Origin: Candidatus Woesearchaeota archaeon | GTDB taxonomy: Archaea > Nanobdellota > Nanobdellia > Woesearchaeales > UBA10107 | Direction of reading: 5' to 3' | DNA length: 36,970 bases | Assembly (NCBI GenBank): GCA_016935155.1 | Contig: JAFGRQ010000017.1 | Location: 1 to 36,970, forward strand | In this document: piece by piece, positions 3,164 through 33,600 of the stretch | How positions within the stretch are numbered: the first letter of the stretch is position 1 | How the letters are laid out: every line of letters starts with the position of its first letter | Notes under the pieces: model-generated | Seen by the model: the letters and a program-made list of their open reading frames with translations, nothing else | The model's database searches: none | Told to the model about the DNA's origin: nothing | Made by a program: the position numbers and the translations under genes

Positions 3164-3276
3164 GTGGCTATTTTCTGTTCTTTTGTTTTTAAATGTTACT
3201 CAAAAAAACATGACGCCAGCACCCGGACAATGCCCAGCAAAGCTGTGCAAGCCCGTGTCCTGTCGTTTCTTCGAAA

Positions 3277-3361
3277 CGCCAGCGCCAGGATTTGAACCTG
3301 GAAGTCCTTGCGGACACTCGCTTTCGAGGCGAGCGCATTAACCAGATTTTGCTACGCTGGC
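3277..3361 (-). tRNA. tRNA-Ser(CGA)
   Basis: Reverse complement GCCAGCG-TA-GCAAAATCTGGTTAATGC-G-CTCGC-CT-CGA-AA-GCGAG-long variable arm-CCAGG-TTCAAAT-CCTGG-CGCTGGC-G; G73; CCA not encoded. Confidence 0.95.
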
Positions 3362-4036
3362 ATATTTTTCTAGCTTCCTTTGTTTTCTAGTGTGAGTGAA
3401 CCCTATCTCCTTTAAAAACCTTCTTCTGTCTTCTTTACGGGTTATGTGGAGCAAAAAATTAGTGTTCCACGTAGCTTTTTTCCTTTTGTATTCATATATT
3501 TTGCTTTGTATGTCGAATTCTTTTAACATGCTGCAAATTTGAATCAATCCAAATTTATTCACACTTTGTATAGTTATGGTTTTTTGTCCAACGTAGGCTT
3601 CACAGTCATAAAATGCACGAAGCCATTCTTTTCTTTCGGAAACCGATTTTAAATAGTTCAAGGGAACTCTCCATTCAAGACTATGAAATGAACCGTGTTT
3701 TAATAAATCTAGAACAATTGGTTTAGACGAAGCTCTGACTCGAAAATAGTTTTTTTCTTTTTTAATCTGTGGTTTTATTTCATATATTTTTTCAAATGCA
3801 AATAAAAAAGAATTTAACATTCTTTTGTTGTCTGGGAAGAAAGAAACATCATGGTGTTTGTGTGTTTTCCACGTTCTAGCTGAGACAAATCCATCTCCCA
3901 TCAAATATGCAAGTATTCTTGCTTTCAATCCGGGATATTTCGAACTATTTTTTTCTATTTTGTTTGTTTCATTTCGAAGAACTTTGCTCCACCTATTGAT
4001 TGCAATTTTTCTATTCCATTCAGATTTACTTAACAT
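3338..4036 (-). CDS. Free-standing LAGLIDADG (DOD/intein-type) homing endonuclease-like protein
   Basis: Two LAGLIDADG motifs, 'ILAYLMGDGFV' and 'WLRAFYDCEAYV', both with the acidic residue; C-terminal 'FLKEIGF.H..K..KL'; no Hint splicing motifs; last 24 nt lie inside tRNA-Ser(CGA). Confidence 0.88.
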   Translation of the reverse strand: MLSKSEWNRKIAINRWSKVLRNETNKIEKNSSKYPGLKARILAYLMGDGFVSARTWKTHKHHDVSFFPDNKRMLNSFLFAFEKIYEIKPQIKKEKNYFRVRASSKPIVLDLLKHGSFHSLEWRVPLNYLKSVSERKEWLRAFYDCEAYVGQKTITIQSVNKFGLIQICSMLKEFDIQSKIYEYKRKKATWNTNFLLHITRKEDRRRFLKEIGFTHTRKQRKLEKYASVAKSG

Positions 4037-4057: not shown

Positions 4058-4088
4058 TTTAAATATCTCACGCGAGGTTGTCTTGTGG
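4058..4088 (-). promoter_or_regulatory. Putative TATA box plus conserved 13-bp motif CCACAAGACAACC upstream of LAGLIDADG gene 1
   Basis: Motif at 4076-4088 and TATTTAAA at 4058-4065; same motif and spacing recur at 15653-15683. Confidence 0.7.
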
Positions 4089-4154
4089 GAGAGGTGGCCC
4101 ATTGTCCCACGCTGGCCTATTGAATCGGAGCAGAACGTCAATATTAAAACCTTT

Positions 4155-5208: not shown

Positions 5209-5314
5209 ATTTTTGTGCCTCGGTTAGTTATTATATAAACTCTCGTTTTCCCATTTGAGTAGCACAGGACACCTCCACCAAATGTTTATAAATGATTTAA
5301 GTGCCTAGTTTAAC

Positions 5315-6145
5315 ATGGACTCCCCCAAAGCAATCAAAAGAGTGCAGTCTGCTTCTTCAATCAATACATTCAAGCAATGTCCAAGAAAATATTTCTACCA
5401 ATACGTTCTCGCGCTGCCCATTGTAGAAAACATATATCAAATTAGGGGAAATATTGCGCACGATGCGCTTGAGCATTTTTTTCAAATCAACATAAATCAC
5501 ATCAATGAAAAAAATTTTGAAAAAGAGCTTAAAATAGCTATGCAGGAACTTCTTATTTTTCATTGGAGAAAGGAAAAAGAAAGACTTGATAAATTAAAAC
5601 TAGAGCCAGCTAAAATTAAATTTTATTTTGAAGAGACGCTTCACATGCTTATTGGATGGGTTGATTTGTTCTGCAAGAAAATAAAAACCACAAAAAAATC
5701 GTTCAAGGATGCATTTGAATTCTTGACTCCGATAGCTGAGCAATATTTTATTTCAAATAAATATGGTGTTCAAGGGTACATGGATGCTATCGAAATTCAA
5801 GAAGGCCACACAAGAATCATGGATTACAAAACTTCATCAAAGAATGAATTAACTGACGAATATCTGCTGCAGCTCGCAATTTATGTTTTATTGTACGAAG
5901 AAAAATACAAAAAATTTCCTGATGAAGTTGGATTGTATTTGCTCAAGCACGGAGAAAAATCAATCAAAGCAGACGAAAATTTGCTCAAGCTAGCGAAAAA
6001 GGAAATCCTTGCTGTGCATGAAAGAACGCAGAGCGAAGAAATTGAAGATTATCCTAAAAAAGAAGGTCCGTTGTGCAAATGGAGTTCCGGAAAGTGTGAT
6101 TTCTATGATATTTGTTTCGGGCAGAAAAAAGTCAAGGATTTTTAG
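5315..6145 (+). CDS. PD-(D/E)XK nuclease, RecB/AddB/solo Cas4-like, with probable 4Fe-4S cysteines
   Basis: 'SASSINTFKQCPRKY', 'G...H..LE', 'GYMDAI...IMDYKT', 'QLAIY', C-terminal 'CKW....CDFYDIC'. Confidence 0.88.
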   Translation: MDSPKAIKRVQSASSINTFKQCPRKYFYQYVLALPIVENIYQIRGNIAHDALEHFFQININHINEKNFEKELKIAMQELLIFHWRKEKERLDKLKLEPAKIKFYFEETLHMLIGWVDLFCKKIKTTKKSFKDAFEFLTPIAEQYFISNKYGVQGYMDAIEIQEGHTRIMDYKTSSKNELTDEYLLQLAIYVLLYEEKYKKFPDEVGLYLLKHGEKSIKADENLLKLAKKEILAVHERTQSEEIEDYPKKEGPLCKWSSGKCDFYDICFGQKKVKDF

Positions 6146-6553: not shown

Positions 6554-6674
6554 TGAGCCCGAGGGGATTTGAACCCCCGACCCCATGGTTACTTTCGGAA
6601 CCTTGTTTCGAAAGTTCGAAAACGAAGGTTTTCGTTAAGAGCCATGTGCGCTAACCAGACTGCGCTACGAGCCC
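6554..6674 (-). tRNA. tRNA-Lys(CTT) with a 46-nt intron at 37/38 (intron 6590-6635)
   Basis: GGGCTCG-TA-GCGCAGTCTGGTTAGCGC-A-CATGG-CT-CTT-A[intron]A-CCATG-GGGTC-GGGGG-TTCAAAT-CCCCT-CGGGCTC-A; removing the intron gives a 75-nt cloverleaf. Confidence 0.92.
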
Positions 6675-6769: not shown

Positions 6770-6910
6770 ATGAAGGAAAAAGAGACCACGCTCAGACTTA
6801 GAGAGTCAACTAAAAAGAAACTCAACGAAATAGAATTTGCTAAGAAAGGAAAATCCTATGATGATATTCTCAATGAATTGCTCGACAAGTACGGGAGGCT
6901 GGCAAAATGA
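6770..6910 (+). CDS. Small ribbon-helix-helix DNA-binding protein (VapB/antitoxin-like), 46 aa
   Basis: Not in the ORF track. MKEKETTLRLRESTKKKLNEIEFAKKGKSYDDILNELLDKYGRLAK; beta-strand 'TTLRL' plus 'SYDDIL.ELL' pattern; ATGA overlap with the next gene. Confidence 0.8.
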   Translation: MKEKETTLRLRESTKKKLNEIEFAKKGKSYDDILNELLDKYGRLAK

Positions 6911-9900
6911 AAACAAAAGAATTTTTGCCGCTCCTTTTTGTGTTTATTGCTGTAATTAGTGCATTTGCTGTTTCAACAATAACCTCTGTGACAATCAATA
7001 CGACGTATTTCACAAACCAGACAGTAGAAAACATTACTGCTTATTGGGTTGACGGGGATGTTGTCAATATTACGGATTGGAGAGTGAATGGAAATTCGAT
7101 TGCCTATGCGTTCTGGCCGTTTGATGGAAGCACAAACAACACGAGAGCGGCTGACTATAGTACTAGCGGAAGAAATGGAACTGTCATTGAAGGAGGAACG
7201 GTTGTTGTTTGGGATGCTGTTGGAGGATTTGACGGACACGGAGCATTCAATTTCTCGGGAGGCGCAGGATATATAATCCATGATTCAAACATAAAAATAA
7301 ATTATTCTTATGGTGGCGGAACCATGGAGAATATTTCTGTTTTGTTCTGGGTGAAATCTCATCTCAATTCCGGCCAGCTGGGAATTTTTCAGCTTGCAAA
7401 CATGCTTAACAGCGGAAATCCATGCATTTTAATTCAAAAAAACGCAGGAAATCTGAGCTATTATGTTTCTGCAGGCTACAGGAATACAACGACGGATTTG
7501 GTACTGAACGAGTGGACGCATGTAGCAGTCACATTCAGCACCCAATCTCAGACTTGGAAATTTTACAGGAACGGCCAGGTTTTGAATGAATATTCGGGGC
7601 CGGCTACACACTGCGATACGCCGGTAAATGATATTTATTTGGGAAACGGGTTTAACGGATTTTTTAACGGCTCCGTAGATGATTTTAGATTGTACAACAG
7701 GTCACTGAGTGCAGAGCAGATACTCAATATCTACAACAACCGCTCAGATTTTATAAGTCACAACGACACATCAAGGGGAGAAAATTGGACTGTGTGCGTA
7801 ACACCATACAATGGTACGGATGTTGGGACTGAAGTTTGCTCAAATCAAATAACAATCAAAGAAAATATTGCGCCGATTGCAGTGAACGTCACAATCAACA
7901 CGACGAATGCAAGAAACTTTACTTCGGAGGACATCACAGTTTACTGGAGTTCAAGCGATGATGACGATTATGAAGGAGCCGTGGTCAATATCACGGATTG
8001 GAGGATGAACGAAACATCAATCGCTGTTTTGAATATGCCTTTTGAAGCAGACGGAAATCAGAATGCAACAGACTATTCAACATATGGGAGCAACGGAACA
8101 AATCAATGGGAAGTGACTTGGCTTCCTACTTCGGGGCATGATGGAGGAGGGACGTACCTTTTTGATGGAGCAGACTATATTGACCATGCTAGTCCTGTTC
8201 TTCCTATTGGGGATGACCCTTATGCAATAACCGCATGGATAAATACGACTGATGTGTGTGCTTATAGGGGAATTGTTGGATGGGGAGGTTACGGAAATTC
8301 AAATCAGGTAAACGCATTTAGATTTGATTCTGATTCTGTACAGCCCGGAGAAGATTGCCATCTCCTTAACTATTGGTGGGACACAGACCTCAATGTCAAC
8401 ACATCCATCCCAATAAGGGATGGTCAATGGCACTTTGTTATTGCAATGTATGACCAAACGACGCGTTCGATATGGATTGATGGCGTGCAAATGGGCAATG
8501 ACACTCCGGCAGCAGACCACGCAGTGCCCGATACAAGCAACTTCAGGATAGGCTCGACAAACGGCGAAAATTTCAACGGAATGATTGATGATGTGAAAAT
8601 ATTCAACAGGTCGCTTTCACCCGAACAAATAGCTTATTTATATCAACACAGGGTAGATATAATTTCAAGTTCAGAAACGCAAACAGGAGATATCTGGACA
8701 GCATGCGTAACACCGAATGATGGGTTTAATGGAAGGACTGTTTGTTCAAACAATTTAACTGTTGTGGGAGATAATGCTCCTCCTTCATGGAATGAAACAC
8801 CAACAAATCAGGAGTTAGAATATGGAAGCGTGTTCAATTATCAGGTAAATGCAAGCGACTCGCCGCTCAATAACTATTTCATAAACGATACAACAAGCTT
8901 CAATATAACGTCAACGACAGGAATCATTAATAATGTTTCTCTTCTTTCTGCAAAAACTTACTGGCTGAACATTTCAGCAAATGATACTTACAATAATCAA
9001 ATTTCAGCAATAATAAATGTTACTGTAACAGATACCATAAGTCTGCTTTCAATATATCCTAACGCGACGGAGGAGCTGCAAAACATTACAACAGAAACTA
9101 GTTTGAACTTAACAAAGAACTATACGGGAACAACAAATTTCACATTTAATGTCACGGCAGATGACATAGGAACAACAGCATTAACTTTCACATGGTTTGT
9201 AAATCAGGTAGTCGAGTTTGTTGAATCTTTGACTTCGGGATGGACAAGCATGTTCAGTTATTTCTTTTCCGTAGGTAATTACAACGTATCAGTTGTCGTA
9301 AACAATTCTTTTACAGAATTAAACGAAACATTTTCGTGGAATTTGACAGTAAATGATGCAAACCTGAATGTAACTGAACTTGCATGGATAACAACAACGG
9401 GAGTTACTTCAAGCGATTTACATTATAATCAAATAATAAAAAACATAACAACAAAAGTAAATTCCACAGTTTCTGCAACGGTGCTGCTTAATGTCCTGTA
9501 TCCAGACGGGACAAATCTGCTGACGAATGCAGAGATGACGAACGTCGATGGAACGGCATTCTACTATGATTCGCAGTTTATTCTTGACAGAGTCGGAAAT
9601 TGGAATATAACAATAACTGCAAATGAAACATCAGCAACATTTTCCAAGAGCTCATTGCTTGATGTGACGAGATTCACAAATCCAACAACGGCTGATGGAT
9701 ATGAAGGATTCGACTCAGGAAAAATTCCTTCTGCAGCGGAGATAAACAATCTTACTGCGTATGGATTTAACTTAGTTGGACTACAAATCAATTATTCCAG
9801 ATTCGACACGGATTGGGAAGCGCTGAAGGCGGCAATAAATTACACATTTTCTGATGAAGACAGCAGTTCATTCATAAAAATTTATTTTGACAAAGGAAAT

Positions 9901-12900
9901 TATTCAAATTACACGGGAGAATGCAATAAGGTGAACGCAAACATGACTGATTTGAGAAGTTACCCTTATGTCGATGGAACTGCGTTTATTGTTGTAGATT
10001 TGAATTCAACTGGAACAGATAATAAATCTTTATTTGTAAATTCTGTATCGGCGTGCATCGCGTCGGCAGTAAATGACCAGTTCCCGATTTATTCTGCAGT
10101 TTCTAACATCAGTCCGGATACAAATTACGTTTCGAATTGGACCATGCACAAAGTGTCAGGAAATAATTTAGAATATGCAACAAGCAGGGAAAACACAATC
10201 TTAAGGTTATCGACATTATATACCAGAATATATAACGGAACAAGTGATGAGTTCAAGAACTGGGCATCAGACTATTATTCTGGCGTTATTGCTAATCTTA
10301 GGGATAAGCCATCTTCAACTCAGCCAACAGACACAATCATTGCAAGACTCGACAATGGAGATTTGATAATCTTTAATAATCAGTCGGGCACATCGCAGAT
10401 AGTTAACTTATCAATTGCTGCAGGAAACGATGCGTGGGATTATACAAACAAAGAACTATTCGAAAACCTTTCGGCAGCATCAGAGAGTGTAGCAGTAACA
10501 ACGCCGCCATATTCAGCATCTATTTTGTTTTTGAACAATTTCAGCAAATTCATCATGATTGACAATGCAACTTCCACATTATACAAAGAAGGCTCGACGA
10601 TTTTTGCTCATTTCAATTACACCCAAGATACGTCCGGCTCAGGAACATATTCCATAGTAGGAACGCATGACGCTCTCACCGAAGTATGGAACCCGAATTA
10701 CGTCTTAGAAAATTTGGAATTTCATACTTATGAACAGTTGATGTATACAAAAATAACCGACTTTAACCCGTACGAAGTAATTGTAGTATCGATTGCGTCC
10801 GTAAATACTCCAACTGTTGTAAATCAATCTCTAAGAGTTTCTGAATTCCCAGATATTCTCAATAGAACTTACGGATATGTTTCCGTTTCTGACTACGACA
10901 ATTTAAACAGCACCGGACAAAACGAAACAAACTGTTCTCTGACGAACGGATGGGAAGATGATAAGAAATCAGAAATAAACAACGTAATTGCGAACTATTC
11001 AATAAATTTGTTCCTTGACGGGTTCGATATAGGATATACTGTCAGCCCGTCATGTTTTGAGGACAGAATAAAACGATTGGCTGATTACGTGAGATTTGAA
11101 AAGAACAAAAAATCAATTTTCAATACTTACACCATTTACGAAATGGTTTCAAATTACGGAGACAAGGTTATGAGAGAGTCTTGTTTTTCCAGATGGGCAG
11201 GGACTGTTGATTCTCCGACGTATTCTTACGAAAACATGACTTTGATGGTTGAGAATGCCAACTTCCTTTCAACGACAAATAAACCAGTTATTTGCATGGC
11301 GTTTGGGGATGTCAATGATTATGATAAAATGGCATGGGACTTTGCAGCTTTTGCAGTCATATACGGAACAAAAACAGGAGGCGGGGATAACAACACGTTC
11401 AGATATGCTCAGCCTAACTTCCAATTGCAGAGGGAAATAAGAGTTCCTGATTTGGGCAACATGCTGCAGAACACATATGATTCCTCAACAGACCCTTCTG
11501 ACTGGACCAGAAGATACTCAAATGGAATAGTTCATGTAAACCCCTTGAGAAATGAAACGTACAGCAATGGAAAATACTATTGGTTTGACGACGGCAGCAC
11601 AATAAACAATCTGAGTATCACATCACAGCATCAGCAATATCACAGCGGAGTTTGTCATGAAGACTACGATTCAGTTCTTACAATCTTTATTTCGAACAAT
11701 GGTTCATGGGAAGAAACATCACAAACCATAGGAAGCTGCGAGGTTTGTGCAGAAGATCCTAACTGCGGAACGGGAGATACGCAGTGGGTTGCGGGATATG
11801 TAACAAAACAGATAAATTGGACTCCGAACGGGCATTATTGGCTGGCATTCAGTCCAAGCATAGCAACATCAACAGGAATAAATCTGTACAATAAAATAAA
11901 CACCACGAGCGGAATTCATTCGTACTATGGAGATTTTATGGTAGGAAGTCTTGGAGATCCCGAAGATGGCTCGTGGAATGAGTATGGAAGAATAGGCACG
12001 TCTGGAAACATTTTTACAACCAACTGGGACATAAATGTAGAGACTAATCAGACAACAAGCGCGAGTGTGGATACTTCTTTGACGACAATAAGCAGCACAA
12101 TAGTTTACTATAATCTGACGACTCACAATCAGCATAATTTGACAATCACTTCCTCAAAATCATACAATCTTCCAGTGTTGGCAGAATCAATTTTGATAAA
12201 CGAATCGTATATCAGAGGAATTTTCTTCAATGGAACAGAGCTTAATGTATCAGATGATATAAACTGCCTTGAAGCAAATCCTGAATTCAATTATTCGAGT
12301 GTGAATGGATATCAGCACGGGGCATGCAGAGTTAACTCAAGCGATGGTTATTACTACCGGGTTTTGGCTCCTCATTTATCTACAATGGTTTATAGTGTTG
12401 AGATGGAAGGAAAACCAATTATCGAGGGAATATATCCTAATGCGACTGGCGATATGCAAAACATAACTGAAGGGAATCAAATAAATATGACCTCAGAATA
12501 CATTGCGACCAATCACTCTTTCAATGTAACCGCTTCGACATATGACAACCATTCGCTGACATTCACATGGATTGTAAACCAAGTTGTAAAGCTGATTGAA
12601 ACGCTGATTTCAGGGGCGACAAGTATGTTCAGCCAGTTTTTTGATATGGGAAGCTACAACATAAGTGTAACTATAAATGCATCAGATGTTTCGCAAAACA
12701 AAACATTTTCGTGGAACGTAACGGTCAGTGATACTACCGCTCCGGCATGGAATGAAACGCCAACAAATAGAACTGTTGAGTTTGGTGATGCACTTTACGT
12801 CAGGTTTAATGCAAGTGATGTGCTGTTCAGCGACTATTCGATTAACGACACAGAAAATTTCATAATTGATTCGTCGGACGGAACGCTCACAAATTATACT

Positions 12901-14505
12901 GAATTGTCGTTCGGAACATATGTTCTTTCTGTAACGGTCAACGACACCTCAAATAATCAGAATACAACTATGATTTACATATTTGTTCAGGATACTGTTG
13001 CGCCTTACTTCGTTCAGATTCCGCAGAATGCAACCGCAGAATATGGTTATGCATTCGAGATGATGGTTAATGGCACAGACAATACGGCTATTGACAAATA
13101 TCATTTCAATGACAATATTAATTTCACAATGAATTCCACAGGATTTATTCAGAATTACACTCTTCTTTTTAAGGGAGAGTACATACTGAATGTTACAATA
13201 AACGATACTTCAAACAATCAAAATTCAACCATATTTGGTCTGATTGTGAATGACTCGCTAACGCCGGGGCTTGTTTTGCTTGACCCGTACAATGAAGCAG
13301 GAGACAATGACGGAAATGTTTCATTCACTTTCAATGTTTCAGACAAGTCAGAAATAATTAACTGCACATTTAATTTCAGCGGTTCATTCAATCAATCGGA
13401 TAATTTGATTACGAGGGACATTGTGCAGGATTTCATCGTCAACAATCTGGATGTCGGGGAATATAATTGGAGCATTACTTGCACCGATGCTTCAAATCAT
13501 ACTAATGTAAGCGGGACAAGATTCTTCAATGTAGTCAAAACAACAGAATTTTCGGGGGACACAACAAATCTCACTCAGGTCAATCTTTCGAATATTGCAA
13601 ATTTCACTCTTGAGGAAACGACATACGGAAAGATAACTTTCCTTGAAAATGTGAATCTGAGCGGGGCAATTAATGTGGACGATTTTGTAAATGTTTCATA
13701 CAACAGAACGGAGGTAAACTCGAGCGGTCTTCCAACTCTGAACACGTCGGCAAGGGTAACTCTTTATGGTCTTCCTTTTACCAACCCGAGACCTATGAAG
13801 GACGGAGAAGTGTGTTCAGACTGCACTGAAATTTCATATGCAGGAGGCATATTTGTCTTTGAAGTAACTTCCTTCAGCGTTTATTCTGCGGGAGAAACTC
13901 CTGTCACGTCAGGAGGTGGAGGAGGGGGCGGATCTGGAAGTGGTTCATACATAACATTGGTTGAATGCAGAACGGATGCTGAATGCGGAGTTCTCGGATA
14001 CTGTTATGAAAATGAGTGCGTACCGTATGAATGTGTCGCGAACGGCGATTGTATGCCGGGCCAAGTATGTTTGATGAACAAGTGTGTGGATTATGATGTA
14101 AAGTCAGAATCCACAAAACAAGAAGCGGTAGAAGAAGCACCCAAAGCAATAACAGCAAGTGCAACGAAAGAACCCGAGAAAAAGAAAGGGTTCAAAATGC
14201 CCGAGTTCAGACTGCCTAAATTGAGTCTGAGCCCAGCGATGAGAGATGCAATCGCGAAAACAACCACCGTTTTTGTTGCAATAATTTTGATTTTGACGAT
14301 TGTTTTGCAGATTAAAAAATCGCTGTCGATAAGCAGAGAAGGAAAATACTTGGATAAGCTTGTTGTCCAAAACAGAATCGCATACAGACTTGGCAACATG
14401 GAAGAGGCAGCAAAGACTTATGAAAAATTCAAGGAAGAACTCGAAAGGAGCCCGGAAGATGTCAAGCAAAAATTCAAAGATGTTGAACAAACGTTGAACA
14501 AATAA
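6907..14505 (+). CDS. Giant membrane-anchored surface glycoprotein (2 LamG/ConA-like domains, Ig/cadherin/PKD-like repeats, putative TIM-barrel glycoside-hydrolase-like region, Cys-rich repeats, C-terminal TM)
   Basis: Signal peptide; LamG motifs 'WTHVAVT...FNGSVDDFRLYNRSLS' and 'WHFV...FNGMIDDVKIFNRSLS'; repeated 'D..AP.WNETP.N' cadherin-like units; many NxS/T sequons; Gly/Ser linker; 'C..D.EC.....C....C' repeats; TM 'TVFVAIILILTIVL'. Confidence 0.85.
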   Translation: MKTKEFLPLLFVFIAVISAFAVSTITSVTINTTYFTNQTVENITAYWVDGDVVNITDWRVNGNSIAYAFWPFDGSTNNTRAADYSTSGRNGTVIEGGTVVVWDAVGGFDGHGAFNFSGGAGYIIHDSNIKINYSYGGGTMENISVLFWVKSHLNSGQLGIFQLANMLNSGNPCILIQKNAGNLSYYVSAGYRNTTTDLVLNEWTHVAVTFSTQSQTWKFYRNGQVLNEYSGPATHCDTPVNDIYLGNGFNGFFNGSVDDFRLYNRSLSAEQILNIYNNRSDFISHNDTSRGENWTVCVTPYNGTDVGTEVCSNQITIKENIAPIAVNVTINTTNARNFTSEDITVYWSSSDDDDYEGAVVNITDWRMNETSIAVLNMPFEADGNQNATDYSTYGSNGTNQWEVTWLPTSGHDGGGTYLFDGADYIDHASPVLPIGDDPYAITAWINTTDVCAYRGIVGWGGYGNSNQVNAFRFDSDSVQPGEDCHLLNYWWDTDLNVNTSIPIRDGQWHFVIAMYDQTTRSIWIDGVQMGNDTPAADHAVPDTSNFRIGSTNGENFNGMIDDVKIFNRSLSPEQIAYLYQHRVDIISSSETQTGDIWTACVTPNDGFNGRTVCSNNLTVVGDNAPPSWNETPTNQELEYGSVFNYQVNASDSPLNNYFINDTTSFNITSTTGIINNVSLLSAKTYWLNISANDTYNNQISAIINVTVTDTISLLSIYPNATEELQNITTETSLNLTKNYTGTTNFTFNVTADDIGTTALTFTWFVNQVVEFVESLTSGWTSMFSYFFSVGNYNVSVVVNNSFTELNETFSWNLTVNDANLNVTELAWITTTGVTSSDLHYNQIIKNITTKVNSTVSATVLLNVLYPDGTNLLTNAEMTNVDGTAFYYDSQFILDRVGNWNITITANETSATFSKSSLLDVTRFTNPTTADGYEGFDSGKIPSAAEINNLTAYGFNLVGLQINYSRFDTDWEALKAAINYTFSDEDSSSFIKIYFDKGNYSNYTGECNKVNANMTDLRSYPYVDGTAFIVVDLNSTGTDNKSLFVNSVSACIASAVNDQFPIYSAVSNISPDTNYVSNWTMHKVSGNNLEYATSRENTILRLSTLYTRIYNGTSDEFKNWASDYYSGVIANLRDKPSSTQPTDTIIARLDNGDLIIFNNQSGTSQIVNLSIAAGNDAWDYTNKELFENLSAASESVAVTTPPYSASILFLNNFSKFIMIDNATSTLYKEGSTIFAHFNYTQDTSGSGTYSIVGTHDALTEVWNPNYVLENLEFHTYEQLMYTKITDFNPYEVIVVSIASVNTPTVVNQSLRVSEFPDILNRTYGYVSVSDYDNLNSTGQNETNCSLTNGWEDDKKSEINNVIANYSINLFLDGFDIGYTVSPSCFEDRIKRLADYVRFEKNKKSIFNTYTIYEMVSNYGDKVMRESCFSRWAGTVDSPTYSYENMTLMVENANFLSTTNKPVICMAFGDVNDYDKMAWDFAAFAVIYGTKTGGGDNNTFRYAQPNFQLQREIRVPDLGNMLQNTYDSSTDPSDWTRRYSNGIVHVNPLRNETYSNGKYYWFDDGSTINNLSITSQHQQYHSGVCHEDYDSVLTIFISNNGSWEETSQTIGSCEVCAEDPNCGTGDTQWVAGYVTKQINWTPNGHYWLAFSPSIATSTGINLYNKINTTSGIHSYYGDFMVGSLGDPEDGSWNEYGRIGTSGNIFTTNWDINVETNQTTSASVDTSLTTISSTIVYYNLTTHNQHNLTITSSKSYNLPVLAESILINESYIRGIFFNGTELNVSDDINCLEANPEFNYSSVNGYQHGACRVNSSDGYYYRVLAPHLSTMVYSVEMEGKPIIEGIYPNATGDMQNITEGNQINMTSEYIATNHSFNVTASTYDNHSLTFTWIVNQVVKLIETLISGATSMFSQFFDMGSYNISVTINASDVSQNKTFSWNVTVSDTTAPAWNETPTNRTVEFGDALYVRFNASDVLFSDYSINDTENFIIDSSDGTLTNYTELSFGTYVLSVTVNDTSNNQNTTMIYIFVQDTVAPYFVQIPQNATAEYGYAFEMMVNGTDNTAIDKYHFNDNINFTMNSTGFIQNYTLLFKGEYILNVTINDTSNNQNSTIFGLIVNDSLTPGLVLLDPYNEAGDNDGNVSFTFNVSDKSEIINCTFNFSGSFNQSDNLITRDIVQDFIVNNLDVGEYNWSITCTDASNHTNVSGTRFFNVVKTTEFSGDTTNLTQVNLSNIANFTLEETTYGKITFLENVNLSGAINVDDFVNVSYNRTEVNSSGLPTLNTSARVTLYGLPFTNPRPMKDGEVCSDCTEISYAGGIFVFEVTSFSVYSAGETPVTSGGGGGGGSGSGSYITLVECRTDAECGVLGYCYENECVPYECVANGDCMPGQVCLMNKCVDYDVKSESTKQEAVEEAPKAITASATKEPEKKKGFKMPEFRLPKLSLSPAMRDAIAKTTTVFVAIILILTIVLQIKKSLSISREGKYLDKLVVQNRIAYRLGNMEEAAKTYEKFKEELERSPEDVKQKFKDVEQTLNK

Positions 14506-14950: not shown

Positions 14951-15631
14951 TTATAAACCTAGTGCTTTTTTAAGGGCCTTTTCCTTCTTTTCGTGAGAAA
15001 AACCAACTTTCTGAGAAAATGTTTCTAGTGATTTTCTGTCAGTTATTCTTATTATTGTGACCTTCGAATAATTCTCTTTTTTGGGTTGATAGAAGTAAAT
15101 TTTATTTTCTATTTCCATGGATTTGAGCAGAGAGGATATTTGTTTCATTCCTTCTTCATTAACTGTTTGGATTTTTATTGCTCTTTTCTCAACATGTGCT
15201 TCAGCAGAGAAAAAGCCTCTGATCCATGCTTCTTTGGCTCCCGAAACAAAAAATAAAGATAATGGAGGAGACCATTTCTTTATTCCGAAATTTGCTGTGT
15301 TTTTTAAATCTTGAACGATTGTTTTAGAACAGATTCTTGCATCGATGAAGTTTTTCTCTTGTTTTATCGAAGGATCTTTTCCATAAATAAAATTCATGGC
15401 CTTGGTGTAGTCTTTTAGCATATTTTTGTCATCCGCAAAAAAGTTAATCTGAGAATGAATGTAGCCTTTGTTCATGACTTCACGTACGCTACCGTCTCCT
15501 GCAATAAATCCACAAAGAAGTGCTTTTTGAATAATTGCATTTCTGTTATTCTTTATTCTTTTTCTTTCTTCTTTATGTATTTTCTTCCATCTATTTTGTG
15601 CTACTTTTTTGTTTCTATCTGAAATACTCAC
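14951..15631 (-). CDS. Free-standing LAGLIDADG (DOD/intein-type) homing endonuclease-like protein, paralog of 3338..4036
   Basis: Motifs 'LCGFIAGDGSV' and 'WIRGFFSAEAHV'; 'IQTVNEEG', 'FSQKVGFSHEKK'; N-terminus 'S..NKKVA.NRW.K' shared with the first copy; GTG start at leaderless spacing from ATTAAAAA. Confidence 0.88.
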   Translation of the reverse strand: MSISDRNKKVAQNRWKKIHKEERKRIKNNRNAIIQKALLCGFIAGDGSVREVMNKGYIHSQINFFADDKNMLKDYTKAMNFIYGKDPSIKQEKNFIDARICSKTIVQDLKNTANFGIKKWSPPLSLFFVSGAKEAWIRGFFSAEAHVEKRAIKIQTVNEEGMKQISSLLKSMEIENKIYFYQPKKENYSKVTIIRITDRKSLETFSQKVGFSHEKKEKALKKALGL

Positions 15632-15652: not shown

Positions 15653-15683
15653 TTTTTAATGTTTTTGTGCGGTTGTCTTGTGG
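15653..15683 (-). promoter_or_regulatory. Putative TATA box plus conserved 13-bp motif CCACAAGACAACC upstream of LAGLIDADG gene 2
   Basis: Motif at 15671-15683 and ATTAAAAA at 15653-15660; same offsets from the start codon as in copy 1. Confidence 0.7.
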
Positions 15684-27515: not shown

Positions 27516-27693
27516 AAAAATCCCTTTTCCGGTTTCTGTCGATGAAGAAATTGTAGAAAAAATAAACCGGGAAGTTGAAAAGGGAGTCTTCAGAAACCGT
27601 TCTCATCTAGTTGAACAGGCAATCCTGAATTTCAAAAAGAAAAGAGAGCTTGGAACTTTAGCAAAATTCACGGAGGAGAAAGATGAAAAATAA
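27508..27693 (+). CDS. CopG/MetJ/Arc-type ribbon-helix-helix protein, 61 aa (tandem paralog)
   Basis: MTKKIPFPVSVDEEIVEKINREVEKGVFRNRSHLVEQAILNF...; shares FRNRSHLVEQAI exactly with the upstream copy; SD-like GGAGG before ATG 27508. Confidence 0.85.
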   Translation: MTKKIPFPVSVDEEIVEKINREVEKGVFRNRSHLVEQAILNFKKKRELGTLAKFTEEKDEK

Positions 27694-30600
27694 GTCCTCC
27701 ATAAAATATATGTTCGCTCTTGCTCTCCTTCTGGCTTCTTTCAGCTTCGCTTTGTTTTCAATACAGCCGGGAGATAATTTTATGGCAATTACTGGATTGA
27801 CCACAATATCCGGCGGCGGCGGAAATCTTTCAACTTTAATAATATATGATGATTTGGATTTGAGCGGAAGCGACGGAACTCTGATTCAAAACTATGTATT
27901 TTATGCAAATTACTCGAACACAACAGACTCTGTAAATATAACTGGAGCAACATGCGACATAAATTTCACGGACTTGAGTGGCGCAATGACTTACAACACA
28001 ACATCTACATTTTATGAATTTGTGAGGAATTTCAGTTCGTCAGGGCAAAAGCATTACAATATCTCCTGTTATGCATCAACATTTGAACAGTTAAATGCAA
28101 CGGACAGCATAAACGTTACAAACTTCGCCAACTGCGACAGCTGTGATTCGTGTTCGAGAGCAGCGCAAATTGGAAATTTAACAGTCAATTTAACACAGTC
28201 TATTAATACGACGGTGAGCTGCATAAATCTCAGCGATTCGGACAATATCGTGATTGACTGCAATAGTTTTTTGATAAATTCAACGGCAGCGGCCGCTTCA
28301 GATGTTTCGCTGATTTCGGGAGGAAGCGTTGATTATCCTCTTGACATGAACGACCGCATTTCTGTTAAAAACTGCAATCTCTCGGGAACCGCAGGCAGTG
28401 CAATCAAATTGAACGGAACGGCCTTCTTTGCGGCCAATTTGAACTTAGAAAACATAGATACAGGCAGCGGATCAGCAGTCAATATTCACGGCGGAAATGA
28501 TTCTTGTATAGTGAATAGTTCCTTCATTAATTTGGATAATATTGCTGTTTATTTGTATGGCAACAGCAGAAGCAATTTCACGCTGGACAGCTGTTTTTTC
28601 GATACAAATACATACGGATTTTTAATTGATGGGGGAATTGTCAACGAAATCAAAATAACTAATAATATTTTTTCGAATTCAGCAACTTCAGCAGTGCTAA
28701 TGCAGGTGTTAGCTCCATTTACCGCAGCAGGATTGCTATTTTCAAACAATACAATAACGAACGTGTCTACTGATCATGGTGTATTTACAAACGCCATAAC
28801 TAATATCAACATAAGTGATAATTGCTTCATTAATGTTAGCGGCAAAGGAATTTATGTTATTGCCTCTCAAAACGGAACAATCTCAAACAACATCGTAGAT
28901 TTGTGCGGGACAGGAATTGATTTGACAACGTCAGGCAACATGACAATATCAAACAACAGCTTGACAAATTCAACAACAGCAATAATGATAACCGCCTCAG
29001 GAAATAGCACAATAACGCGGAATTCTATTTTGAGTTCCGAATACGGAATTGATGTCGGGGGAGGTTCGTTTTTTGATATCATTACTCAAAATTATGTTTC
29101 CGGCATCTCAGGGCAGGCTGATTCAGCGGCAATAAATCTGCAGAATGGCGCAGGCAATACATCTGTTATCAATGGAAACCTTCTTTTCAATTCAACTTAC
29201 GGAATTAGAATAGGTTCCGTAAGCGGGTTGATAATTGCAAACAACACGATAGAAAATAATTCTTTTGACATATTAAGTTCAACACAAATTAGCTACTCTT
29301 TCGAGAAAGGAAACAATTCTGTTGATTTTCCATCCATTTTGAATGTGAGCAACAGCCAGCAGAACATTTTCTTAAATGACAGCATAATCTCAATTAATGC
29401 ATCTCTCGAGTTAAGCCTAAACAGGTCAGCAAATGTAACTCTTGTGCTACCTTATGGAACATGTCCTGCAAAGATTTACTATTATGGTTCATTTACGACA
29501 AACCGTTCATTAATTGTTGACGACGGCCAGCTTTGCACAGCATCAACAAATCCCGCATGCACTAACATGGTTTGTTCCGGCAATTTAATTTCATTTACTG
29601 TGGCTCATTTCGATGGTTATGCAGTCGGATTCGGAACTGCTCCGGAAGTAAACAATGTGATATTGAATTCAACATATTCTACAAACTTCACAACAGAAAA
29701 TCTGACTGCTTACTGGAATTCAACAGATCCTGAAAATGACACGGTTGTGAACATAACTGACTGGAGAATTGACGGTGTGTCTTATGCAAGACTTAATCTT
29801 CCTTTCGAAGGAGGGAGCAATTCTACATACACAAAAGATTATTCCTCATACAATGCAGATGTATTTGTAGTTAATGCTACTTGGAATTATACGGGAGGAC
29901 ACGATGGTTATGGAGCATATGATTTCAACGGAAACCGCAGCTATATCTACACTCCCCTGAATGCAAGTGATTTCAACAGAAGCATGGCAGTTAGTCTGTG
30001 GTTAAAAACAGAAAGCAACGGCAGTGTGATGGGTTTCTCTGACGGCATACCTTTTGGAGGAAATTATGATAAGGAAATAACTGTGATGGGAGACGGAAGC
30101 ATAGATTTCCGCTTATATCCCAACGACCCATATATCGGTGCAGCTACAACGGGAGTAGATGTAATGGATGGACTTTGGCATCACTTGGCTGTCATCAGAA
30201 GTTTCGATGAAGGAACTTTCATTTATGTTGACGGCGTTTTGAGGGCATCAACAACAAGTATAGAAAATGAAAGCCAAGGATATGAAGGATATTTAACAGT
30301 AGGAATCAACACGCAGCACAAAATATACTTCAACGGAACAATTGATAACTTTTTGATTTTCAATAAATCTATTTCATCGCAGGAAGTTTTGCTTCTTAAT
30401 GTATCAAGAACAGATACGCTTTCAAAATACGAGACACTAACAGGAGAAAACTGGTCTGTCTGCGTAACTCCCAATGACGGAACTTTCGACGGCACAACAG
30501 TCTGTTCAAACAATATTTCAATAAGAAACAAAGCAGAATTTATTTCTGTTTATCCAAATCAGACGAATGAATGGCAGAACATAACCGCCGACGATACTAA

Positions 30601-33600
30601 CATAACTTTGACAATAAATTCAACTTCCTCTCAAAACACAACATTCAATGTTACAATTACTGCAGACAGCGCAACATTCACGTTCAGCTGGTTTGTAAAT
30701 GGGATTTTAGAATTTGTTGATGTGGTAGTCAATGGATTCATAAGCATGTTCAGCAGGATATTCCTGGCAACAGACATGACTAATGTGACGGTTGTTGTAA
30801 ATTCAACAGAAGCGGGCGTAAATGACACATTTACATTCCATGTGAACGTAACTTGTTTAATTCCTTCAGCAGACGGATTTACATTGAATGAAGATGGAAT
30901 AACTTTGTGTCCAGGAAACTATACCATAAATGGAAGTATAATAATCAACACAAGCAATGTTTATCTGAGCTGCGACGGGTCGACTTTAACAGGGAATGCA
31001 ACAAACCAAGCATTCAAGCAGGTCAGTCTTCACAGCATAAGCAACATAACAATCAGAGACTGCATTTTCAAAAATTTCAACGGAGCAATATATTTGATGA
31101 ATGTAAGCACAGCGTATTTCCTGAATAATTCCTTCCACAACAACACATACGGAATTTTCGTAAGCTCTTCAATAAATGCAACAATTTCAAACAACACATT
31201 TTACAGCGGACTTTATGGGATTGTGAATGATGTTGAAGGAGACAAGAACACAATTTCGTACAATAACTTCTACAATCAAACTGGTGAAGCAATTTCCATA
31301 ATCCAAAAAGGACCGACAATAGAGTATAATGTATTTGATGGATGTACGCTCGGAATTGGGCTGGAATTCAATCCGTACGGCGGAGGAAATGCAAACAGGA
31401 ATTTAATCGGCTCCAACATAATTAAAAACAATTCGATAGGCATACGTGCAAGAGCTTCTTACCATAACCAATTCACCGATTTGAATATTTCATATACGCG
31501 CCAGGCATTCTTGTTCAGCGATGTTCCTTCATTTGGAGCGGTAAACGTAAATAACTCAATAATAAATCCTCTTTTCCTCGGCAACACTCACGACGTAGTT
31601 TTCAATTACGATGCAAACGAGAGCGACAATAACACTCTTTTCATAAATGACACTCTGGCAAATTCAGTTACATTTTTCTTGGTTGGAAACATAACAAACC
31701 TAACAAACAATTACTTCCTAAATTCAAGCATAATTGCTGTAAACACAACAGGGGAGCCAAATCTAAATACGAATGCAACGGTCTCATTTGCGGTGCCTTC
31801 ATGCAGTGTCGAGCTGTTCAGAAACACAGGATATTATGAGGAAATTTCAGGTGCGGAAAGCGAAGCATCTCAGTGCACTTCATGTGAGAATATTGTCTGT
31901 GCAAATAGCATAATGAATTTCACAACACCATCGTTTTCCACAATATTCGCAGCATCCATTCCAAACATAACGGAAATATTTCCAAATTCAACTAACGGAA
32001 CACCCCCTGTATTGGGAGAGGATACAAATGTTTCCATCGTTGTAGAAACGGGAACAAATATCACATATAATGTAACCGCGCTTGATTATGATTCAGCCAC
32101 GCTGACATTCTCGTGGTTTGTTGACGGCGTTGAGGCACTTGTCGAGGCGGTGGTGGGTGTTCTGAACACTTTTGTCAGCATATTCAACAAGATTTTTTCA
32201 GACATAGCGTATCACAACATTACATTAGTGATAAATGATTCAGCAAGGCAGGACAATTTCACATTTTATGTGCTGTCCAACGATACAATTTCTCCTTTAT
32301 TCAATGAGTCCCTGAGCAACATAACTGCAGAAGTCGGGGAGGCAATTGCATATGATGTTAATGCATCGGATTTATTCTTTGATAAATATTCGGTAAATGA
32401 CACAACAAGATTCAAAATAAATTCGAGCACAGGACTGCTTGAAAATGCAACGTTTGTTTCCTACGGATGGTATGAAATAAATATTTCCGTTAATGATACA
32501 AATAACAATGTTAATTCATCAGTAATTTGGGTCTTTGTCAACGATACAATTCCTCCGTCATTCAACGAAACTCTCAGCAACATAAGCACATATGCAGGAT
32601 ATTCTGTCTATTACTGGATTAATGCATCTGATTTGTCCGGGGTTGATGCATATTACATAAATGACACAGTCAGATTTAAAATAAACAGGAGTACAGGTAT
32701 CATGGAAAACATTACCTCTCTGACCGCAGGAACCTTTGCAGTAAACATAACGGTCAATGATACTCTTGGAAACATAAATTATTCTGCAATAACCGTTTTT
32801 GTCTCTGATATTCCGACAACGCCAGCAACCGAAACTGGAGGAAGATCTACCCATTCAGGAATTTTCTATACTCCTCCTGCTGAAGAAACAGAACCGGTAC
32901 TGGAGGTTCCTTCTGCATCCGTTTCGTCAATAACCGCGGAAAACATAAATCTTAATCCCTTCGCATGCACGGAAGTAGCAGGGGTAAGTCAGACAACCAG
33001 TTCAATTAAACCAGGAACTTCAATTTCAAATTTAATTTTGAAGCCAGGATATGAAGTTCTCGTTTCTCCTTTCAAGGTTGAATGTACCGATTCAAGTTTC
33101 AAAATAAGTCTGTCTCTGCCGGATTCATACACAAACATAACTGCATTAAGATGCAGAGGAAACGACTGCAGTGCAGTATCATTAAAAGAGATTTTCAATT
33201 TGGAATGCGGAGAAGACATATTCGAAAACATTGAAAGGACATCATCTGTGCTGTCTCCAGAATTTTTCCCTCTTCCATTAGAAAGAGTTGAATCAAAACC
33301 AGGAACCGCAGAAGTTTCTTCAAGCAGAACAAGATTGGTTTTCTCCGGAATAATAGACGGAAAACTAGCCATTGACAAAGTGTTTGGAGATGTTCCTGAA
33401 GCACAAAATCCAAAAATAAAGATTGTCAGCACGCCTACACAAATATTATTTGATTCATTGAATCAAAAGCCAATGAACATAACCCTTCCATATTTGTTCG
33501 AGGAAAAAGTAGATGAATACAGCATTGCGCTTTACGCATTGAAAAATAACGAGTGGAATTATATCGGAGGAACGGTCAACGCAGGTTCCAAAACAGTTAC

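Follow-up and report, generated by a model that had tools for sequence, protein, structure and literature searches.

The DNA examined here is a stretch of 36,970 nucleotides (hereafter, the window) that spans positions 1 to 36,970 of contig JAFGRQ010000017.1 in the Candidatus Woesearchaeota archaeon assembly GCA_016935155.1. It contains two free-standing genes of the LAGLIDADG_3 family, both on the minus strand. The first (P0001, 232 aa, 3338..4036) matches PF14528 with an E value of 4.7e-14 and its last codons overlap a tRNA-Ser gene. The second (P0002, 226 aa, 14951..15631) starts with GTG, which aligns with an ATG in the orthologues of two relatives of the same genus (G002 and G005), and matches the same family with an E value of 1.7e-16. 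The two proteins are 36% identical. The nearest solved structures are the endonuclease domain of PI-PfuI (E 3.8e-6) and I-DmoI (E 0.021), and both proteins are of the two-motif, monomer type, with the motifs ending in ...MGDGF and ...YDCEAY in P0001 and in ...AGDGS and ...FSAEAH in P0002, so that the acidic residues are kept as in active nucleases. The distribution of the two genes differs: P0002 appears to be vertically inherited in the genus and sits in conserved synteny in G002 and G005, with 55-59% identity and neighbours 75-92% identical, while no orthologue of P0001 above 37% identity was found in the five genus relatives searched (G001-G005).

An earlier note had pointed out that an identical 13-bp motif precedes both start codons at exactly the same distance, and this observation is correct. 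The 13-mer GGTTGTCTTGTGG is exact at 4076-4088 and 15671-15683 on the plus strand and reads CCACAAGACAACC on the coding strand. The distances (4076-4036 and 15671-15631) are both 40, i.e., 39 nt lie between the motif and each start codon. TATA-like octamers are found at -29..-22 in both cases, TATTTAAA (4058..4065, minus strand) before the ATG of P0001 and ATTAAAAA (15653..15660, minus strand) before the GTG of P0002. This is the ordinary leaderless geometry of this genome, in which TATA-like hexamers start at -30..-28 in 324 of 651 crude ORFs. The rest of the two upstream regions does not align meaningfully. The first copy is followed by an extension, TCGCGTGAG (4067..4075, minus strand), that occupies the usual position of the BRE (we call this arrangement class A), while the second copy is followed by an A-rich, BRE-like stretch (class B). 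We found a third box in the window that the note had not reported, GCACAGGACACCT at 5262..5274 on the plus strand. It is followed by a TATA box, TTTATAAA (5285..5292), whose hexamer starts at -30, and by a gene (5315..6145, plus strand, 276 aa) coding for a PD-(D/E)XK, Cas4/Dna2-like nuclease (PF12705 E 6.7e-26, Dna2 2.7e-8, Cas_Cas4 2.4e-5). Orthologous genes in G001, G002 and G003 also carry the box.

Within the window alone the statistical support is weak, since 13 of 100 shuffles gave at least two matches when two mismatches were allowed. At the level of the genome (771 kb) the support is strong. There are 6 exact copies and 13 with at most one mismatch, against 0 for the reversed pattern, while from the base composition we calculate that about 0.01 exact copies would be expected. 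The pattern CCAC[AG][AG]GACAA[CT][CT] matches 15 times against 0 for the control. A weight matrix identified 22 promoter sites, dispersed over 15 contigs at gene starts, with scores of 18.6 bits or more, against a maximum of 10.1 bits for the reversed sequence, although the matrix was built from 18 of the 22 sites that it then scores and only 4 are independent finds. The first copy in the window has the highest score in the genome (56.0 bits), the second scores 34.5 bits and the third 18.6 bits. The genes downstream of these sites come from crude ORF calls of our own.

The position of the box relative to the core promoter is very constant. All 22 sites face a gene, a TATA-like element follows each of them, the box ends 12-13 nt before the TATA hexamer and in 17 of 22 cases there are 39-42 nt between box and start codon. 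The class A extension, in the form NCGYGTGAG, follows the box at 8 of the 22 sites, where it replaces the A-rich BRE that is ordinary in this genome at -7..-3 of the TATA hexamer.

A way to approach the meaning of the box is to examine the genes that it precedes. By Pfam comparison these include Hef, XPD, a Hel308-like C-terminal half, Hjc, PolB, a PriS-PriL primase fusion, NreA, the PD-(D/E)XK nuclease and six clear plus one weak LAGLIDADG_3 genes, together with small putative DNA-binding proteins (among the box-headed ones are those designated here HTH166, RHH73, a 73-aa RHH protein, and Zn50, a 50-aa zinc-ribbon protein). RadA belongs to an operon in which it starts 19 nt after a box-headed ORF of 90 aa (p90). 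Four targets in this genome are of unknown function (ORFs of 324, 150, 90 and 39 aa). Some sites appeared at first to lack an ORF and gave no Rfam or tRNA hit directly downstream, but were then explained by leaders and small ORFs. Comparison with a protein atlas returned unnamed clusters for p90, and the idea that p90 is PC4-like found no support and was dropped.

The box is also present upstream of orthologues in sister species, in G002-G006 for Hjc, Hef, the Hel308-like C-terminal half, the PD-(D/E)XK nuclease, PriSL, Zn50 and LAGLIDADG genes. The box-p90-RadA arrangement is kept in six other genomes (G001, G003, G004, G005, G015 and G030) from at least three families. When the P0002 promoter was compared in three species, only the box and the TATA were conserved. 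A scan of 151 genomes of the order gave 381 matches against 78 for the control, and 38 genomes have 4 or more matches against 0 for the control. A CCAC-NN-GACA form recurs across the order, where a GCGTGAG form of the extension is also found, and in one family of a second order. The targets in these other genomes include UvrB, a UvrA-like N-terminus (labelled so here, Pfam giving only the ABC ATPase N-terminus), Hef, a Rad50-like ATPase, RFC, Cas4, XPD, Bro-N proteins, an integrase, an RNase-H-like exonuclease and TnpB. These counts have to be taken with caution, since many genomes of the order have 0-2 matches (about the control level), the numbers in some relatives are inflated by multi-copy TnpB or repeated elements and related genomes are not independent samples. 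The order-wide tallies of box matches, of Orc orthologues and of PF14528 matches also include three genomes flagged as unpublished (G117, G126 and G137), on which no sequence and no specific claim rests, and totals were also drawn up without them. A scan of viral contigs with the order-wide 22-mer gave a single contig, within what we would expect by chance.

The interpretation given in the earlier note is partly supported. It had proposed that the motif is under selection and that it could be an element end, a binding site of the LAGLIDADG protein itself acting in autoregulation just upstream of the BRE, or a conserved RNA motif. Selection on the motif is supported, as is its location just upstream of the BRE/TATA, where a DNA-binding protein would act. 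However, the box is not private to the LAGLIDADG genes, as it heads 22 promoters in this genome, most of them for unrelated DNA replication and repair genes. The note had considered that the 13-mer being common genome-wide without a link to these genes would speak against its reading, and this holds by half, because the motif is genome-wide but linked to a coherent gene set that includes these genes.

A reading centered on the LAGLIDADG proteins, either as autoregulation or with a domesticated paralogue acting as a WhiA-like transcription factor for the whole regulon, appears unlikely. In its favor, LAGLIDADG genes are the largest single class of targets in this genome, many are found also among the targets in G015 and G044, the 22-bp class A element has about the length of the target of a monomeric LAGLIDADG enzyme, and P0001 and P0002 resemble the monomeric enzymes I-DmoI and PI-PfuI. 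However, most box genes are not LAGLIDADG genes, two other LAGLIDADG_3 genes of this genome (on contigs C39 and C49) have no box, and across the 151 genomes LAGLIDADG load and box count are uncoupled. For example, G030 (although only 78% complete) has 10 box sites and no PF14528 match, while G032, G127, G142 and G111 have 12-18 PF14528 matches and 0-1 box sites. The acidic residues of both motifs in the two proteins, kept as in active nucleases, also weigh against this reading. It is likewise improbable that the box is a basal promoter variant without a dedicated factor, read directly by TFB, TBP or RNA polymerase, or by a variant TFB or TBP, to set promoter strength for this gene class. The rigid phase with the TATA box and the replacement of the A-rich BRE at class A sites would fit such a role, but only one locus matches the TFIIB family in this genome (90% complete) and one TBP gene was seen, so no alternative basal factor is evident. 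Besides, the box has 13 bp of high information, is absent from the other roughly 300 leaderless promoters and is restricted to a functionally coherent set, which is the signature of a specific regulator.

The two remaining possibilities, a mobile-element end or homing site and an RNA motif, are not supported and we consider both very unlikely. The patchiness of P0001 and the presence of the box at TnpB genes in G003 and G267 could suggest the boundary or half target site of a homing-endonuclease cassette, but P0002 is syntenic, the 3' flanks of the two ORFs share no motif that could be a partner half-site, similarity stops exactly at the box and TATA, and the same box precedes core genes such as RadA, Hjc, PolB, Hef and XPD. 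As for RNA, the short inverted repeats that the note had described at the distal end of both copies exist as written, the one at copy 1 (GTGGGA/TCCCAC, 4085-4110) being a perfect 6-bp pair, but they are at chance level and not conserved. Over the 22 sites the mean best stem touching the distal end is 3.77 bp, against 3.69 bp in 4400 shuffles, RNA folds of either strand of either copy gave z-scores of 0.78, -1.63, 1.23 and 0.42, and no Rfam family matches at these places. Moreover, the box lies upstream of the TATA box and so is not in the mRNA.

These observations taken together suggest that the 13-mer is the invariant core of a promoter-proximal operator, which in this genus reads CCACARGACAACY and order-wide CCAC-NN-GACA, often followed after about 5 nt by GCGTGAG. 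We give this reading a probability of about 0.8. The operator would sit about -52/-53 from the start codon of mostly leaderless genes and mark a regulon of DNA replication, recombination and repair genes, and of nuclease genes of selfish or domesticated origin (LAGLIDADG, and TnpB in relatives). What the analysis demonstrates is recurrence far above chance, a fixed geometry, the functional coherence of the targets and conservation upstream of orthologues across species, families and a second order. That a sequence-specific protein binds the box next to or over the BRE, controls TFB/TBP recruitment and thereby makes these genes fire together on DNA damage or in the replication phase is an inference from sequence alone, no RNA sequencing run containing the stretch having been listed. 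From the position just upstream of the BRE we lean (about 60:40) to activation over repression by BRE occlusion. In this view the two LAGLIDADG genes are members of the regulon, and their expression would be tied to the time when recombination repair capacity is high.

The candidates for the putative factor are an Orc1/Cdc6 protein (the box shares CCAC-W-GGA with the ORB-like elements of this genome), the box-headed small proteins HTH166, RHH73 and Zn50, or an as yet unrecognized protein, but our attempts to identify it, with three protein families compared over 151 genomes, gave little. HTH166 (P0003), for which the protein atlas gave only an ArsR-like winged-helix lead, is 44-84% identical across the order (mostly 50-67% outside the genus), but was found in only 47 of 151 genomes and is missing, with this query, from the box-rich genomes G015 and G021. 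There are two Orc1/Cdc6 genes in this genome, and an Orc1-type gene is present in 149 of the 151, but orthologues of the second paralogue (P0004, OrcB) at over 50% identity occur in only 12. Neither tracks box-rich genomes, the associations being weak (14 of 47 against 24 of 101 box-rich genomes for HTH166, and 5 of 12 against 33 of 136 for OrcB).

A wider reading, which remains tentative and to our judgement slightly less probable than not, is that an SOS-like DNA-damage or recombination-repair regulon exists in DPANN-type archaea, old enough to span a whole order and reach a second one. It would be driven through the CCAC-NN-GACA box next to the BRE, with radA (behind a conserved long leader of 190-270 nt and the 90-aa partner gene) as its most conserved member. 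Selfish nucleases (free-standing LAGLIDADG genes, TnpB, integrases and Bro-N proteins) would have repeatedly plugged into it, and would then cut DNA only when the repair capacity of the host is raised. In a bolder version, the box would descend from the origin recognition box and the replication initiator Orc1/Cdc6 would double as the transcription factor of the regulon, as DnaA does in bacteria.

Outside the Sulfolobales, the regulation of the DNA-damage response in archaea is poorly understood, and no transcriptional regulon is known to us to have been defined for the small-genome DPANN lineages. Literature searches, supplementary files apart, found no report of the motif or of a DPANN repair regulon, and the hits for the 10-mer appeared from their titles to be in unrelated eukaryote papers. 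A box of high information with rigid promoter geometry, conserved from species to order level, provides a concrete handle. It predicts which genes are co-regulated (radA, hjc, hef, xpd, polB, primase and nreA, and uvrAB and rad50 in relatives), assigns a likely DNA-repair context to several proteins of unknown function (p90, the 39-aa, 324-aa and 150-aa proteins, HTH166 and Zn50) and offers a bait for fishing out the regulator. It also suggests how free-standing homing-endonuclease-like genes and TnpB are kept tolerable, by coupling them to the repair regulon, in parallel to the SOS-controlled mobile elements of bacteria.

For the comparison with described systems the literature consulted included PMC6061795, PMC1904270 and PMC3528665. 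The archaeal origin recognition box (ORB or mini-ORB), bound by Orc1/Cdc6, is also 13 bp long and asymmetric. The box variants CCACAGGA and CCACTGGA equal the first 8 nt of the ORB-like elements of this genome (CCACAGGAAATGAGGGGG) and resemble the reverse complement of the Pyrococcus mini-ORB TTCCAGTGGAACT (PMC1904270). However, the ORB cores TTCC and GAA, called perfectly conserved in PMC1904270, are not kept: the box has nnCC ... GAC, with no conserved TT before it and an invariant GAC(A) where the ORB has GAA, and the G that makes GGA is lost in the variants CCACAAGACA and CCACTTGACA. The boxes are dispersed at promoters and not clustered at an AT-rich origin, while true ORB-like elements with a G-run lie on contig C59 near the OrcA gene and upstream of the TBP gene, which is followed by MCM, and the box centre does not co-vary with the ORB centre. 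Regarding the LAGLIDADG proteins, the regulator WhiA shows that this fold can become a transcription factor, but no HTH of the WhiA type was seen in P0001 and P0002, there is no evidence that they bind the box, and their genes are free-standing, not in an intron or intein. In its location immediately upstream of the BRE/TATA in fixed phase, consistent with recruitment of TBP or TFB, the box resembles the sites of archaeal activators such as Ptr2 and TFB-RF1, which have other sequences and other regulons.

The gene content runs strikingly parallel to that of the bacterial SOS regulon (LexA box), with uvrA and uvrB, a PolB-type polymerase, an XPD/DinG-type helicase, junction-processing enzymes, the RecA/RadA recombinase, DinD/Bro-N-like proteins, and mobile-element nucleases and integrases wired into the regulon. 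Yet no S24/LexA-like peptidase (PF00717) was found in this 90%-complete genome, the box is not a palindrome and it lies upstream of the BRE/TATA of an archaeal promoter rather than over a -35/-10 promoter. In position and regulon logic the box resembles the DNA-damage-responsive element of the Sulfolobales (DDRE, 5'-ANTTTC-3'), a short asymmetric promoter element at -23..-55 from the ATG, shared by DNA-damage-response genes and bound by Orc1-2, which activates them (PMC6061795). The lineage is different (here a DPANN-type archaeon, with a factor so far only inferred) and so are the sequence, CCAC-NN-GACA being unrelated to ANTTTC, and the gene set, which consists of recombination, excision repair and replication enzymes plus nucleases here and of Ups pili, the Ced system and TFB3 there.

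The + strand 13-mer GGTTGTCTTGTGG, which reads CCACAAGACAACC on the coding (-) strand, is exact at 4076-4088 and 15671-15683, and in both cases it lies 40 nt from the first base of the start codon (the A of ATG 4036 and the G of GTG 15631), with TATA-like octamers at -29..-22. The observation made in the earlier note was confirmed. Both downstream ORFs code for LAGLIDADG_3 proteins (P0001, E 4.7e-14, and P0002, E 1.7e-16) that are only 36% identical to each other, and outside the motif and the TATA box their upstream regions do not align. The 3' end of the first of these ORFs (3338-4036, -) overlaps the 5' part of a tRNA-Ser(CGA) (3276-3362, -) by about 25 nt, and the tRNA may be co-transcribed from the box promoter. 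A 121-nt Rfam tRNA match (51.5 bits) at 6554-6674 (-), not called by ARAGORN, is probably an intron-containing tRNA. The window also contains two giant ORFs of 2532 and 2430 aa (6907-14505 and 27683-34975, both +).

Inside the window alone the repeat is not statistically compelling, since with two mismatches allowed 13 of 100 shuffles gave two matches, and it was the genome that settled the question. The window is contig C33 of an incomplete 771-kb assembly of 59 contigs (G000, 89.9% completeness), in which the 13-mer occurs 6 times exactly and 13 times with at most one mismatch, against 0 for the reversed control, while a looser pattern gave 15 matches against 0. A weight matrix built from 18 sites recovered those (the seed sites match by construction, so that this step is partly circular) and 4 more, all 22 scoring 18.6 bits or more against a maximum of 10.1 bits on reversed sequence. 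One of the four new sites, GCACAGGACACCT at 5262-5274 (+), is in the window, 40 nt before the ATG of the ORF at 5315-6145.

Every site is followed by a TATA-like element, and the 13-mer ends 12-13 nt before the TATA hexamer. In 17 of the 22 sites 39-42 nt separate the 13-mer from a start codon, the others having 46, 48-75, 50, 165 and 246 nt. This is the normal leaderless layout of the genome, in which TATA-like hexamers start at -30..-28 in 324 of 651 ORFs (ORFs throughout are our own crude calls) and an A-rich BRE lies at -7..-3 of the hexamer. Eight of the 22 sites (class A, including the copy at 4076-4088) continue as NCGYGTGAG up to the TATA box, whereas the others (class B, including the copy at 15671-15683) have an ordinary A-rich BRE there.

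According to Pfam, the genes behind the box in this genome include Hef (helicase, ERCC4 and HhH), XPD, a Hel308-like C-terminal half, Hjc, a family-B DNA polymerase, a PriS-PriL fusion, NreA and the PD-(D/E)XK (Cas4/Dna2-like) nuclease of the window. The Hel308-like gene (C44:22194-23756, -) encodes only the C-terminal half (Helicase_C, HTH_61, domain 4) and has its own box promoter; no DEAD-domain half lies within 2.7 kb upstream, and the same N-terminus is seen in a relative of the same genus (G005). It may be a split gene. LAGLIDADG_3 genes with the box are the two in the window plus those on contigs C10, C34, C52 and C20, and one weak case on C27 (E 0.0042). Two further LAGLIDADG_3 genes, on C39 and C49, have no box, their best scores being negative; the one on C39 begins right after what looks by eye like a tRNA. 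Other putative targets are a 166-aa winged-helix-type protein (HTH166), a 73-aa RHH/antitoxin-like protein, a 50-aa zinc-ribbon protein (Zn50) and ORFs of 324, 150, 90 and 39 aa without a family. The 39-aa ORF (C21:7216-7335) has counterparts of 39-45 aa in G003 (same genus) and G044 (same order); this conserved ORF ends in FDVQFSDRW, lies behind a class A box and is overlapped by a second small ORF. HTH166 (C31:804-1304) is unusually conserved, at 44-84% identity in 46 other genomes of the order (mostly 50-67% outside the genus), and sits behind a class A box with a leader of about 85 nt that contains a small hairpin (GCCGAATCAATTCGG in relatives).

The 90-aa ORF (p90, C20:845-1117) follows a 246-nt leader (C20:599-844), and only 19 nt after it comes RadA (C20:1136-2176), so that the recombinase appears to be transcribed from a box promoter. 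The box-p90-RadA arrangement recurs in four genomes of the genus (G001, G003, G004 and G005) and in G015 and G030 of the same order. The p90 protein, with no Pfam family and 49-83% identical in these 6 relatives, is always encoded directly upstream of radA, and is a candidate RadA partner or single-strand-binding factor. The leader, 190-270 nt long, has sequence blocks conserved in four species, for example AATTCACGGCA and CCATTGAAACAAAACGCGAAC; it gave no Rfam hit and is a candidate regulatory leader or small RNA.

Within the genus, the exact pattern CCACRRGACAACY occurs 18, 8 and 8 times in G003, G004 and G005, with controls of 0, while G001 uses CCACTRGACAACY (T at position 5) at 11 or more sites and several sites in G002 read CCACTGGACAACC. 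The box precedes orthologues of Hjc, Hef, Hel308C, PD-(D/E)XK, PriSL, Zn50, HTH166 and LAGLIDADG genes, with protein identities of mostly 55-85%. P0002 is syntenic in G002 and G005, with neighbours 75-92% identical, and in the three-species alignment of its promoter only the box and the TATA box are conserved. In the second genus of the family (G006), CCACRRGACAnnY plus TATA precedes Hjc, Hef, Zn50, Cas4 and the RFC small subunit.

Across the order, 151 genomes were scanned with CCACNNGACA followed by 16 N and WWWWA, which gave 381 matches against 78 for the reversed control; 38 genomes had 4 or more matches, against 0 genomes for the control, although many have only 0-2, which is near the control level, and related genomes are not independent. 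The commonest form is CCACTGGACA, about 5 nt, then GCGTGAG, 1-2 nt, and then TATA, often preceded by a second CCAC unit. The targets sampled in G015, G044, G106, G084 and G030, together with G003, were Hef, UvrB, a putatively UvrA-like N-terminus, a Rad50-like SMC ATPase, Cas4-like nucleases, Bro-N proteins, an XerC/D-type integrase, an RNase-H-like exonuclease, three TnpB genes and many LAGLIDADG and HTH-LAGLIDADG-like genes. In a second order of the class only one family (f140) was rich, with 13 sites in G267, 7 in G276 and 6 in G264, the other families of the class that were searched having 0-2 matches. Its form is a tandem CCACTTG-CCACTTGACA before XPD, Cas4-like, Bro-N, exonuclease and TnpB genes. 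TnpB genes (OrfB_IS605 plus Cas12f1-like TNB) thus carry the box in their promoters in two orders, at three loci in G003 and three in G267. Counts in relatives include multi-copy elements: an identical box promoter sits at 6 places in G276, 4 of them within about 300 nt of a contig end, which suggests a repeated element, and TnpB copies inflate other counts.

Among the readings offered in the earlier note, that of an element end is not supported, given the synteny, the unrelated 3' flanks of the two ORFs and the many core genes that carry the box. A conserved RNA motif is also unlikely, as the box lies upstream of the TATA box, the inverted repeats are at chance level (3.77 bp against 3.69 bp) and the folds are unremarkable. 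Nor does the box appear to be specific to LAGLIDADG genes, since over the same 151 genomes G030 has 10 box sites and no PF14528 match, while G032, G127, G142 and G111 have 12-18 matches and 0-1 box sites. The interpretation in the note was partly right, in that one of its alternatives was a protein-binding promoter element under selection, which our analysis supports, but it was wrong in scope. The motif points to a conserved replication, recombination and repair regulon, of which full-text literature searches found no description and into which, in this view, nuclease genes of selfish origin are wired.

The analysis itself shows an asymmetric, high-information element of 13 bp that is locked in phase with the TATA box, restricted to a coherent gene set and conserved before orthologues. 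That is the signature of a binding site for a specific regulator next to the BRE, although the binding and any effect on transcription are inferred from sequence alone. Since in class A promoters the conserved extension occupies the BRE position, occlusion (repression) is also possible, and we lean only slightly towards activation. Neither HTH166 nor the second Orc paralogue is likely to be the universal factor. The only TFIIB-family locus of this genome lies in an open frame of just 161 aa (C8:5449-5880, -) and may be a truncated, frameshifted or split TFB gene.

Sites directly upstream of the BRE are typical of archaeal activators such as Ptr2 and TFB-RF1. The Sulfolobales DDRE, which is bound by Orc1-2, lies at -23..-55 from the ATG (PMC6061795). 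The idea that Orc1/Cdc6 binds the box rests on this Sulfolobus precedent, on the Pyrococcus mini-ORB (PMC1904270) and on the CCAC-W-GGA shared with the ORB-like elements of this genome (CCACAGGAAATGA.GGGG, with a G-run, at C59:164-181, +, and 11656-11673, -). One of these lies about 100 nt upstream of the OrcA gene, next to a long AT-rich stretch that is a likely replication origin, and the other upstream of the TBP gene, which is followed by MCM. However, the ORB cores are not kept in the box, the GGA is lost in common variants and the centres do not co-vary, so that within the main explanation we consider this candidate unlikely. As for the signal, which may be DNA damage or the replication phase, the content of the putative regulon (radA, hjc, hef, xpd, uvrAB, rad50, polB, DinD/Bro-N-like and mobile nucleases) resembles that of the bacterial SOS regulon, and primase and RFC also fit a replication-phase programme.
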